Virus record (IMG/VR): IMGVR_UViG_3300001765_000046
Location: 1-56,500 of that record
DNA: 56,500 bases
Reading direction: 5' to 3' (one strand)
From: a virus
Taxonomy: Duplodnaviria; Caudoviricetes
The notes under the pieces were generated by a model, which made no database searches, had not been told where the DNA came from, and saw nothing but the letters and a program-made list of their open reading frames with translations. The position numbers were made by a program, and so were the translations under genes. Positions 35,894 to 37,776 of the stretch are shown here, piece after piece (position 1 is the stretch's first letter; each line of letters opens with the position of its first letter).

Positions 35894-35920
35894 AAAAAAG
35901 GGGGTAATACCCCCTTCTTT
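35892..35920. terminator. Bidirectional terminator between phoH and dut-C
   Basis: A tract, GGGGG-taata-CCCCC, then T-rich tail. Confidence 0.75.
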
Positions 35921-36227
35921 ATTTGCCCGAATGACCGTAACCACCCGTTCCTCGTTCAGTTTCGGTTAAACTATCTTTTTCCGTTAATTTGATTTTTGGA
36001 TATGGTATAATAATCATCTGACACATTTTTTCACCTACATTGTATTTATGTGAAAAGTTACTATTTTTCTTATTGAATGTTGCCATAATTTCACCACGAT
36101 AACCACAATTATGTAAACACAAATTATTACCAAAAAAATTGTGATTTTTTTCCACGGTTAAATGGTAAATTGGTTTACTTTCAGTTTTTTCAATTTTTTT
36201 TATTTTTGTAAATTTCATATATTTCAT
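35919..36227 (-). CDS. dut: Split-intein C-fragment (40 aa) fused to the dUTPase C-terminal part
   Basis: IYHLTVEKNHNFFGNNLCLHN|CGYRGEI..GEKMCQMII..ERGTGGYGHSG (dUTPase motifs 3-5). Confidence 0.92.
   Translation of the reverse strand: MKYMKFTKIKKIEKTESKPIYHLTVEKNHNFFGNNLCLHNCGYRGEIMATFNKKNSNFSHKYNVGEKMCQMIIIPYPKIKLTEKDSLTETERGTGGYGHSGK
36108..36227 (-). mobile_element. IntC of the dUTPase split intein
   Basis: Basic N-terminus, blocks F and G, terminal HN before the +1 Cys. Confidence 0.9.
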
Positions 36228-37035
36228 TTTTTATTTCATTTAATGTTATTTTTTTTGTATTATATTCATTTTCCCAAATAACCATTACACTATAACCATT
36301 ATTTATAAGTAAATCGATTCGATCCTTATCGTTTTTCCAAATTTCTTCGGCAGTTTTTCTTATTTGTTTATGAAAATAATCAGGATTAAAAAAATTAGGA
36401 TTACAATGCCAATAATCACCATAACATTCAATTAGAATGTTGTTATTAATTAAAATATCTGGAAATGTTTTTCTAATTGTCAGATCAATAAAACCATTCG
36501 ATTCTACAGTTAAATTATTAATGTTCACTTTTAAAAACTCAAATATTTCTTTTTCAAATTTGGATGTTCTTTTCCCGATAAATTTTGATTTACATTTATT
36601 TGAACAGTATCCATCATCTTCCCAATTACTACTAATATATTCTTTACCACAAAAATCACGTTTTTTCTTTATTCTACCTGATAAATGTTTACATTCATTC
36701 GAACAAAATTTAGAATTTGTTCGATAATTCCAAACAGTATATTCTTTAGCACAATGTTTACATAATAATATTTTTTTGTTTAATTCAAAATTTTTATTTT
36801 TACGCTGATTTTTACTAGCACATGATATTGAACAAAATTGTGTTTTAGTGTGATTTTTAATTTCAAATTCTTTATTACACTCTTTACAGTTAATAATCCT
36901 TCGTTTTCTTAATGGGTTTAGATGTGTTGACATTGAATTATAACGACACACATTTGAACAGTACTTAGCGTTATTTCTATTGGATAAGAATTCTTCCCCA
37001 CATTGTAAACATTTTTTTTTATATATTTCCCCCAT
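36190..37035 (-). CDS. Vsr/DUF559-like homing endonuclease with zinc-finger repeats, inside the fractured dut
   Basis: Four CxxC..(Y/F)CSxxC-type repeats; PDILI..IECYGDYWH..IW..D..R..GYSVMVIWENE. Confidence 0.85.
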   Translation of the reverse strand: MGEIYKKKCLQCGEEFLSNRNNAKYCSNVCRYNSMSTHLNPLRKRRIINCKECNKEFEIKNHTKTQFCSISCASKNQRKNKNFELNKKILLCKHCAKEYTVWNYRTNSKFCSNECKHLSGRIKKKRDFCGKEYISSNWEDDGYCSNKCKSKFIGKRTSKFEKEIFEFLKVNINNLTVESNGFIDLTIRKTFPDILINNNILIECYGDYWHCNPNFFNPDYFHKQIRKTAEEIWKNDKDRIDLLINNGYSVMVIWENEYNTKKITLNEIKNEIYEIYKNKKN

Positions 37036-37044
37036 ATAATTTTT

Positions 37045-37071
37045 ATCTATTACTATAAATATCTAATAGAT
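37045..37071 (-). promoter_or_regulatory. Late promoter enclosed in an 8-bp hairpin upstream of the endonuclease
   Basis: ATCTATTA-ctataaatatc-TAATAGAT; ATATTTATA at 37062..37054. Confidence 0.6.
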
Positions 37072-37092
37072 TAGTAAAAACAATGTGATATA

Positions 37093-37776
37093 TTAAAAAA
37101 ATCTTAAAATTTCATCCATTTCTGTTAAATTTATAACTTTTTTCCACCCAGATTTAGTAAAAACCTCTTTTTCGTGTGGTAATTCAATTATATCTCCGTC
37201 TTCTGTGGTTATTTTTAATAAATCTTTATTTTCGACAATCCACATATCAGTAATAATATCAGTGTCGATTGAATTTGATTCTTCATTATATGATAAAATT
37301 GGTAATGTTGGATTTTTAAATAAATCTTCAACATTAATATCACCATTTATGGTTTTTATTTTAGTTCCAGATGGAACGCAATCTATCACACCAACGGAAT
37401 TTGATAATGTTAATTCAGTATCGCGTATAGACGATCTTGGTAATAATAATCCAACATAACCTCTTGGTATCTCCATTGAGATGTCAGTTCCATAAGTAAT
37501 TTGTGTATCTGTTTCATTGATTATTCGTGATACTCTGAAATCTAAACCAGCGTCTCCGTCTTTGGCGTAAGATGGCGTTATAGCAAGTTTATTTAATTTA
37601 ACATAATTCACATCCATTAAAAATTCAGTGGCGGTATCTTTTTTAATGTTTTCACTTAGTTGGCTCATTATTTTATCTAATTCCCCAAAAGTAGACAAAT
37701 CAACATCATCGTTATTTAATTGTGAATCGATATCTTTTAATTTTTTAAGATATTCTTCAATTTCATTTTTTTCCAT
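37093..37776 (-). CDS. dut: dUTPase N-terminal part fused to a split-intein N-fragment (95 aa)
   Basis: GDAGLDF, PRSS, NSVGVID|CVPSGTKI.. (block A), ..VFTKSGWKK..L...DEI, stop. Confidence 0.92.
   Translation of the reverse strand: MEKNEIEEYLKKLKDIDSQLNNDDVDLSTFGELDKIMSQLSENIKKDTATEFLMDVNYVKLNKLAITPSYAKDGDAGLDFRVSRIINETDTQITYGTDISMEIPRGYVGLLLPRSSIRDTELTLSNSVGVIDCVPSGTKIKTINGDINVEDLFKNPTLPILSYNEESNSIDTDIITDMWIVENKDLLKITTEDGDIIELPHEKEVFTKSGWKKVINLTEMDEILRFF
37096..37380 (-). mobile_element. IntN of the dUTPase split intein
   Basis: Starts with Cys after GVID; acidic; HINT N-terminal pattern. Confidence 0.88.

Follow-up and report, generated by a model that had tools for sequence, protein, structure and literature searches.

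Fractured genes, in which a phage DNA-metabolism gene is interrupted by a split intein together with a free-standing GIY-YIG or Vsr-like endonuclease gene, were described by Dassa et al. (2009; NAR 37:2560, PMC2677866), whose main text gives eight host types (gp41, NrdA, NrdJ, IMPDH, DnaE, ligase, terminase, and one unknown) and reports overlaps of 6 to 69 bp between the endonuclease open reading frame (ORF) and the downstream ORF in 15 of 26 loci. The DNA analyzed here, called the window, is the whole 56,500-nucleotide stretch of IMG/VR virus record IMGVR_UViG_3300001765_000046 (Caudoviricetes). The record (56.5 kb; G+C content, 28%; estimated completeness, 18%) probably represents part of a very large phage genome. 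Positions 35919-37776 of the window carry three co-oriented minus-strand ORFs (Table 1), which very probably constitute a fractured gene: a phage trimeric-type dUTPase invaded, just 3' of its motif-3 Asp codon, by a cassette of a split intein (halves IntN and IntC) and a Vsr-like (EDxHD) homing endonuclease, with the intein belonging to a clade with a noncanonical block B and block F. Arrangements of this kind are known, but this host gene and this insertion site appear to be undescribed.

The two outer ORFs (N-ORF and C-ORF) were each identified as part of a dUTPase. The Pfam dUTPase family (PF00692; curated cutoff, 22 bits) matched the N-half at 32.7 bits over profile positions 4 to 82 and the C-half at 29 bits over positions 72 to 129, and the PHROG dUTPase profile was covered at positions 139 to 226 by the N-half and 228 to 291 by the C-half. 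The host segments outside the intein (exteins) sum to 194 amino acids (132 + 62). All five motifs of trimeric dUTPases (AGLDF, PRSS, GVID continued across the junction by CGYRG, KMCQ, and RGTGGYGHSG) were matched in them by patterns in which Lys was accepted for the Arg of motif 4, and Tyr and His within motif 5. A product of this length and type, with all five motifs, had been proposed by the first-pass annotation, an earlier model-generated reading of the DNA sequence alone. The break falls immediately 3' of the motif-3 Asp codon. When the halves were aligned separately with P0043, an intact, intein-free dUTPase of 148 amino acids, the N-extein ended at residue 80 and the second residue of the C-extein fell on residue 82, with Cys+1 in place of Ser81 and no residue missing or duplicated. 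The gene for a conserved enzyme is present, in other words, as a pair of neighboring ORFs in one orientation, and together these are collinear with the intact gene of homologues. The same three-ORF layout was found in three syntenic IMG/VR contigs (L004, L005, and L006), a recurrence well beyond chance. Both exteins were under purifying selection in three pairwise comparisons (ratio of nonsynonymous to synonymous substitution rates [dN/dS], 0.23 to 0.41), with values of 0.23 and 0.32 at a dS of 0.60 to 0.70 for the exteins of L004 and L006.

An acidic N-terminal extension of about 53 amino acids (window 37618-37776, minus strand) precedes the catalytic domain. This extension was also present in L004, L006, and an intein-free relative, L014, whereas neither P0043 nor the GenBank phage dUTPases used for comparison have it.

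The N-half ends in IntN, and the C-half starts with IntC. The junctions read by the first-pass annotation, NSVGVID followed by CVPSGT in the N-ORF and NNLCLHN followed by CGYRGEI in the C-ORF, were recovered unchanged, and the acidic character claimed for the 95-amino-acid IntN and the basic character of the 40-amino-acid IntC were reflected in net charges of −9 and +5, respectively. The earlier figures of 40 amino acids for IntC and 38 nt for its overlap with the endonuclease ORF stand when counted from the first ATG. The Met kept among relatives is the fourth codon of the C-ORF in the window, however, so that the real IntC may comprise 37 amino acids and the overlap 29 nt, the value that L004 likewise gives.

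The conservation of the splice junctions was assessed in two sets of relatives. When 1.84 billion cluster representatives were searched exhaustively with the N-ORF by HMMER, 1,821 matched at an E value of ≤1e-3; among the best 150, which were examined, 53 carried IntN at the same site. Fifty-two of these stopped 0 to 11 residues past IntN and were therefore split, and the other, P0066 (293 amino acids), ran from IntN through an IntC-like segment into the C-terminal part of the dUTPase, forming a contiguous mini-intein. The intein Cys directly followed the motif-3 Asp in 50 of the 53, with one Asn intervening in P0080, P0105, and P0117. The C-ORF, used in a word-based search, retrieved 44 proteins, namely, the window's own, the intein-free P0043, and 42 dUTPase C-halves preceded by IntC (96 to 116 amino acids; identity, about 40 to 73%). 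Cys1 was kept in all 53 N-halves, and in 43 C-halves the penultimate His was kept in 42 and the terminal Asn and Cys+1 in all. A nucleophile at position 1, a terminal His-Asn, and a nucleophile at +1, as in canonical class 1 inteins, persisted even though whole-ORF identity to the window dropped to 26% for N-halves and to about 40% for C-halves.

To examine the association of the intein halves, a complex was modeled from IntN extended by 7 extein residues and IntC extended by 8 (three runs, three controls). The interface score (ipSAE) was 0.83 in three runs, compared to 0.00 for the best control, a mark reached by 58 of 80 solved complexes and by 2 of 110 mismatched pairs; contact agreement among the runs was 92% or better, with a partner pLDDT (predicted local distance difference test score) of at least 74. 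Because split inteins have solved structures, this result may reflect likeness to known structures and is no proof of binding. The retained junction residues, the collinearity with P0043, and the model together bore out the split-intein reading of the first-pass annotation.

Also in the C-half, a Cys at IntC residue 37 (window 36117-36119), four residues before Cys+1 (LCLHN followed by C), was present in 42 of the 43 sequences. The Cys-x3-Cys pair spanning the C-terminal splice junction could be a redox switch.

The dUTPase intein family is widespread in metagenomes, which the first-pass annotation had not noted. A C-ORF scan of IMG/VR yielded 17 dUTPase loci (L015 to L031), several of them duplicates and three of them the L004 to L006 contigs, and the layout of the window recurred in all 16 with sufficient upstream DNA. 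Both halves were intact in dozens of clusters defined at 50% identity, and clusters P0034, P0066, and P0045 were named "dUTPase" only. The search for intein-free and contiguous alleles that the first-pass annotation had suggested recovered both: the empty-site alleles were L014, at the syntenic position, and P0043, and the contiguous allele was P0066. L014 encodes an uninterrupted dUTPase of 202 amino acids (NSPGTID followed by SQYRGEI) with the same neighbors as in the window, a glycosyltransferase, a 79-amino-acid ORF, and a 189-amino-acid ORF.

GenBank phages yielded no counterpart. None of the records matching the N-ORF (107) or the C-ORF (387) covered at least 80% of the query, no split form was found among them, and a DNA search with the 4-kb region gave no match; three matches that seemed to extend past the junction (H1, H3, and H4) were ordinary uninterrupted dUTPases. 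IMG/VR searches for loci of the split TxxQ subtype (P0081) and of P0066 gave N-extein matches only, or none, and a search for longer proteins found no full-size contiguous intein in dUTPase, which is weak evidence. Two further loci, L007 and L008, were rejected as instances of the same element; they share the first intein block only and sit in other genes. L007 (3212-5098, plus strand) has a contiguous intein with a Vsr-like ORF on the opposite strand at 4253-4858 (minus strand), and L008 (2813-5062, plus strand) has a contiguous intein with an HNH ORF bearing FCS-like zinc fingers in another frame of the same strand at 4255-4890 (plus strand). Both inteins appear to hold an endonuclease ORF outside the intein reading frame.

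Canonical class 1 inteins carry the motif TxxH in block B and an Asp at the fourth position of block F. The window has P200 and K203 in block B, and the family lacks the canonical Thr and His there, a feature that the first-pass annotation did not mention. Among the 53 N-halves, the Thr position was occupied by Pro (35), Thr (13), Ser (3), or Ala (2) and the His position by Lys (39), Gln (8), Thr (3), His (1), or other residues (2), while the fourth residue of block F was His in 41 and Asn in 2 of the 43 C-halves. Alignment of IntN with the Npu and Ssp DnaB mini-inteins was ungapped over 75 residues; in it, the block B Thr falls at P200 and the block B His at K203. A control set of 53 IMG/VR loci, several of them duplicates, with the same IntC family in other genes had Asp at the block F position in 52 and Cys in 1. 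In the 27 control IntN-like alignments that covered block B, Thr was present in all and His in 26, mostly as TP(D/E)H followed by VYT.RGW as in the window. The combination of PxxK and block F His was found in all 16 dUTPase loci with both halves readable; the contiguous P0066 has TETQ in block B and Asp in block F. The replacement is lineage specific and unusual, and the alignments point to a dUTPase-specific intein clade in which the block B Thr and His have given way to Pro and Lys and the block F Asp to His.

In another gene, an IntC relative in L068 (about 3001-3084) has a Cys at the fourth block F position (WVYCIDV), which is the hallmark of class 3 inteins.

With these residues of blocks B and F replaced, the N-terminal acyl shift must be activated in a noncanonical way. 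The intein probably still splices, to judge from the retention of Cys1, the terminal His-Asn, and Cys+1 and from the purifying selection on the two exteins. A bolder proposal, to which we give somewhat less than even weight, is that the dUTPase split inteins are a large natural clade able to splice in the absence of both block B residues believed to drive the first step. Lys at the His position, Pro at the Thr position, and the block F His would then make up a new catalytic arrangement, perhaps adapted to the obligatory Asp at −1; a scissile bond strained by a Lys-Asp(−1) ion pair is one conceivable way. If this were true, the clade would supply ready-made orthogonal split inteins with tolerance for an acidic residue at −1.

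The middle ORF lies free-standing between the halves and overlaps the downstream ORF. The first-pass annotation had called it a zinc-finger plus Vsr-like endonuclease gene, and profile and structure comparisons agreed. Four Cys-x2-Cys ... (F/Y)CS-x2-C repeats are followed by a C-terminal region containing IECYGDYWHCNP. Across an alignment of the window protein and 27 relatives (28 sequences), D193, G206-D207-Y208-W209-H210, N212, and P213 were invariant, and E203, D236, and E255 were present in at least 90%. The residues of the EDxHD composite motif (Glu, Asp, His, Asp) are represented by D193, E203, D207, H210, and D236, and the conserved residues align with D51, F62, H69, and D97 of Vsr (numbering as given in PMC2677866). 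Profile searches matched the DUF559-type protein 3hrl (E = 5.4e-5), I-Bth0305I (3r3p; E = 2e-4), and Escherichia coli Vsr (1cw0; E = 5.4e-4); a single-sequence search of the PDB gave weak zinc-finger matches only, and the nuclease match needed the profile search. An AlphaFold model (mean pLDDT, 87.6) was matched by Foldseek to 3r3p (probability, 0.99; target-normalized TM score, 0.72; root mean square deviation, 3.4 Å) and to 1cw0 (probability, 0.99; TM score, 0.51), and E values for the whole model were weak (none ≤0.001) because of its zinc-finger half. Pfam families matched among the 28 sequences were MTES_1575 (20), DUF559 (9), NUMOD3 (4), and zf-FCS_1 (2). These results place the endonuclease in the Vsr-like/EDxHD homing family (PMC3239194), with an FCS-like zinc-finger array in place of NUMODs.

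Comparison of L004 and L006 indicates recent homing of the intein-endonuclease cassette. Synonymous divergence (dS) was 0.018 for IntN, 0.014 for the endonuclease gene, and 0 for IntC, compared to about 0.66 for the flanking exteins and 0.31 for the upstream gene. The two contigs share a near-identical block of 1,307 nt with 8 mismatches (about 99.4% identity), whose boundaries lie 12 nt upstream of the first intein codon and 20 nt downstream of the last; such a block with short co-conversion tracts is the footprint expected of recent homing. The same contrast, weaker, was seen in amino acid identity between the window and L004 (IntN, 85%; IntC, 97%; endonuclease, 73%; exteins, 50 to 60%). An intact Vsr-like ORF was present in 11 of the 17 IMG/VR dUTPase loci. 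In L022, the endonuclease ORF is shortened to 201 amino acids and ends before the catalytic motif, and L026 and L028 resemble it by coordinates only. In L024, the spacer has shrunk to 176 nt, one frame of which still encodes the last third of the endonuclease directly before the IntC start; L025 appears to match L024. Both intein halves were intact in all of these loci with a frameshifted or deleted endonuclease, and the intein persists without the endonuclease.

Several results weigh against a working split intein in a working dUTPase. The block B His is the single most conserved intein residue and is essential in many inteins (PMC6333167); an intein with a block B lacking it therefore cannot be assumed to be active. 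The N-ORF had no Pfam intein match at an E value of ≤0.01, the Pfam family Intein_splicing matched residues 5 to 40 of the C-ORF at 31.5 bits, under its curated cutoff of 35.8, and IntN matches to solved DnaB mini-inteins were weak (E = 0.23 and 0.74). Motifs 4 and 5 of the dUTPase (KMCQ and GYGHSG) deviate from the consensus. The spacer upstream of the endonuclease gene (37036..37092) held no significant hairpin (z-score, −0.07), and a promoter scan found 19 sites, with no excess over the 20.1 expected from shuffled sequences. A rival reading, which we consider unlikely, is that the intein halves no longer splice and serve as mere tight association domains that join the dUTPase pieces noncovalently. 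The replaced block B (Pro in 35 and Lys in 39 of the 53) would fit it, a phage ribonucleotide reductase encoded in fragments has been reported to assemble with no splicing (PMC3045599), and the complex model supports association, not chemistry. Association alone, however, needs neither Cys1 nor the terminal Asn nor Cys+1, which were kept in 53 of 53, 43 of 43, and 43 of 43 sequences across distant relatives; Cys+1 stands in place of the Ser of intein-free alleles, and an unspliced insert of 135 amino acids would lie within catalytic motif 3.

That the dUTPase gene is dead, inactivated by insertion of the endonuclease gene and surviving as decaying remnants, is a good deal less probable still. 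The slight departures of motifs 4 and 5 from the consensus would agree with decay, but both halves evolve under purifying selection (dN/dS, 0.23 to 0.41, in the three comparisons). They were also intact in all 16 informative loci, including those with a decayed endonuclease gene, and in dozens of clusters defined at 50% identity. We regard as most improbable of all that the interruption is a group I intron with an endonuclease gene or an assembly artifact. Vsr-like endonucleases do also occur in group I introns (PMC2677866, PMC3239194), but no Rfam intron family matched at an E value of ≤1, small-RNA matches were below threshold and confined to the terminator, and the endonuclease gene is flanked by in-frame, strongly constrained coding sequence (dN/dS, 0.15 for IntN and 0.03 for IntC). 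Against an artifact, one 14-kb contig of a public sequencing run spans the whole stretch with 0 differences, although that run may be the source of the DNA, and the same layout occurs in many independent contigs.

In a fractured gene with a functional split intein, the three ORFs would be transcribed together, with transcription ending at the hairpin at 35894-35920. Terminator-like sites numbered three, all at that position, compared to 0.6 expected from shuffles, and the hairpin is likely the terminator for all three ORFs. The two intein halves, IntN acidic and IntC basic, would associate, and Cys1, the terminal Asn, and Cys+1 would then perform trans-splicing, as conservation and the complex model suggest, to give a 194-amino-acid dUTPase with Cys where intein-free alleles have Ser. 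On the population data, the endonuclease would cut intein-free dUTPase alleles of co-infecting relatives, and repair would copy the cassette.

No second dUTPase was found in the 56.5-kb record. Short contigs identical to parts of 35850-37850 occurred in runs labeled microbial mat metagenome, from three further studies and the probable source run; no RNA run was listed among the matching runs. Contigs of four runs held no trustworthy joint across the cassette, and these contigs cannot exclude an empty-site form; the sole joint listed in those runs skips 110 nt within the endonuclease gene and was seen in one contig with a 25-nt side.

Other inteins and homing-type genes were also seen. A second fractured gene occupies window positions 2042-5938 (minus strand), where a ClpB/ClpC-like AAA+ ATPase is broken within its second Walker A motif (Table 1). 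The phoH gene of the window (35081-35893, plus strand) is intein free and lies on the strand opposite the dUTPase, and just beyond it, at 34036-34845 (minus strand), is a free-standing GIY-YIG endonuclease gene with NUMOD1 and NUMOD3, the third homing-type nuclease gene. In L004, the PhoH gene that adjoins the dUTPase (5929-7704, plus strand) is interrupted in its Walker A motif by a contiguous intein of the LAGLIDADG type. Compared with the intein-free L006 gene (5913-6683), this intein seems to begin with Ala (GCGK followed by AQPLDS, through VTHN followed by T).

Table 1. Positions in the window of the dUTPase locus, its component parts, and the second fractured gene
Feature	Position	Strand	Remarks
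dUTPase N-half + IntN ORF	37093-37776	-	227 aa; ..NSVGVID then CVPSGT..; ends ..EILRFF
Free-standing endonuclease ORF (middle)	36190-37035	-	281 aa
IntC + dUTPase C-half ORF	35919-36227	-	102 aa; ..NNLCLHN then CGYRGEI
dUTPase N-extein	37381..37776	-	132 codons; ~53-aa N-terminal extension, motifs 1 and 2, first half of motif 3; ends GVID
IntN	37093..37380	-	95 codons + stop; begins with Cys1 (CVPSGT); block B, L-P-H-E-K
Spacer, N-ORF stop to endonuclease start codon	37036..37092	-	57 nt
Endonuclease gene	36190..37035	-	Four FCS-like zinc fingers (~9-150); Vsr-like/EDxHD nuclease domain (~157-281)
IntC	36108..36227	-	40 codons from first ATG, 37 from conserved ATG at 36218; block F, IYHL; ends LCLHN
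dUTPase C-extein	35919..36107	-	62 codons + stop; begins with Cys+1 (CGYRGE); motifs 3b, 4, and 5
G+C-rich hairpin followed by T-run	35894..35920	both strands readable	Between converging dUTPase C-half and phoH
ClpB/ClpC-like N-ORF	4592-5938	-	Ends ..GVGK then CISGDT..; unusually short IntN, 34 aa
Vsr-like ORF in ClpB/ClpC-like gene	3268-4524	-	418 aa; ..EFHGDMFHGNP..
ClpB/ClpC-like C-ORF	2042-3190	-	Long IntC, ~129 aa, ending ..LSHN, then T

The first-pass annotation had remarked that dUTPase is not among the commonly cited hosts of split inteins, and the literature examined agreed. The main text of Dassa et al. contains no occurrence of dUTP or dut (a dUTPase locus in the list of their Table S1 is unlikely). 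In the open-access literature, no paper was found that pairs dUTPase with a split intein, and of the papers with both intein and dUTPase, none of those examined reports an intein in dUTPase; dUTP and dut do not occur in the intein survey PMC4760082. Several features are shared with the fractured genes of Dassa et al., including the order of N-half with IntN, endonuclease ORF, and IntC with C-half, all co-oriented; a Vsr-like endonuclease whose 3' end overlaps the downstream ORF (29 to 38 nt in the window); the phage context and an insertion inside a catalytic motif; and a variant without the endonuclease (their gp41-7, L024 here). The window locus differs in its dUTPase host, which is not among their eight types, in having no upstream hairpin that could be found, and in an intein whose block B reads PxxK, not TxxH, and whose block F has His at the Asp position. 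A close known counterpart of the endonuclease, I-Bth0305I (PDB 3r3p), is the prototype of the EDxHD homing endonucleases and resides in a group I intron of recA with N-terminal NUMOD repeats (PMC3239194). The two proteins share a C-terminal Vsr-like nuclease domain with conserved acidic, His, and Asp residues, whereas the window protein is free-standing in a split intein and has four FCS-like zinc fingers, with NUMOD3 in 4 of the 28 aligned sequences.

With this locus, dUTPase joins the hosts of fractured genes, with the residue after the catalytic motif-3 Asp as the site, and one gene displays the whole life cycle of the element, from the empty site through intact, decaying, and deleted endonuclease to a contiguous mini-intein. 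Of most interest for intein chemistry are the dozens of split inteins, diverged and apparently functional, in which the block B Thr and His are missing and Lys and His stand elsewhere. For engineering, the inteins are short (95 + 37 to 40 amino acids) and are predicted to act beside Asp at −1 and Cys-Gly/Asp-Tyr at +1 to +3. dUTPase and dCTP deaminase belong to the same fold superfamily. Closest among published cases is a contiguous intein (residues 133 to 483) with a nested endonuclease in the dCTP deaminase of cyanophage vB_AphaS-CL131, which was shown to excise itself in E. coli (PMC6293099). The host there is likewise a phage nucleotide-metabolism gene, and the N-extein likewise measures 132 amino acids; the intein differs in being contiguous with its endonuclease nested and in its dCTP deaminase host. 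The orthologues of the Tko CDC21-1 intein are a small known group that naturally lacks the block B His (cited in PMC6333167). They form a natural lineage that needs compensatory activation of the N-terminal junction, as the window lineage presumably does, but they are contiguous, archaeal, and located in another host protein, whereas the window lineage is a split phage intein with Lys and Pro in block B and His in block F.

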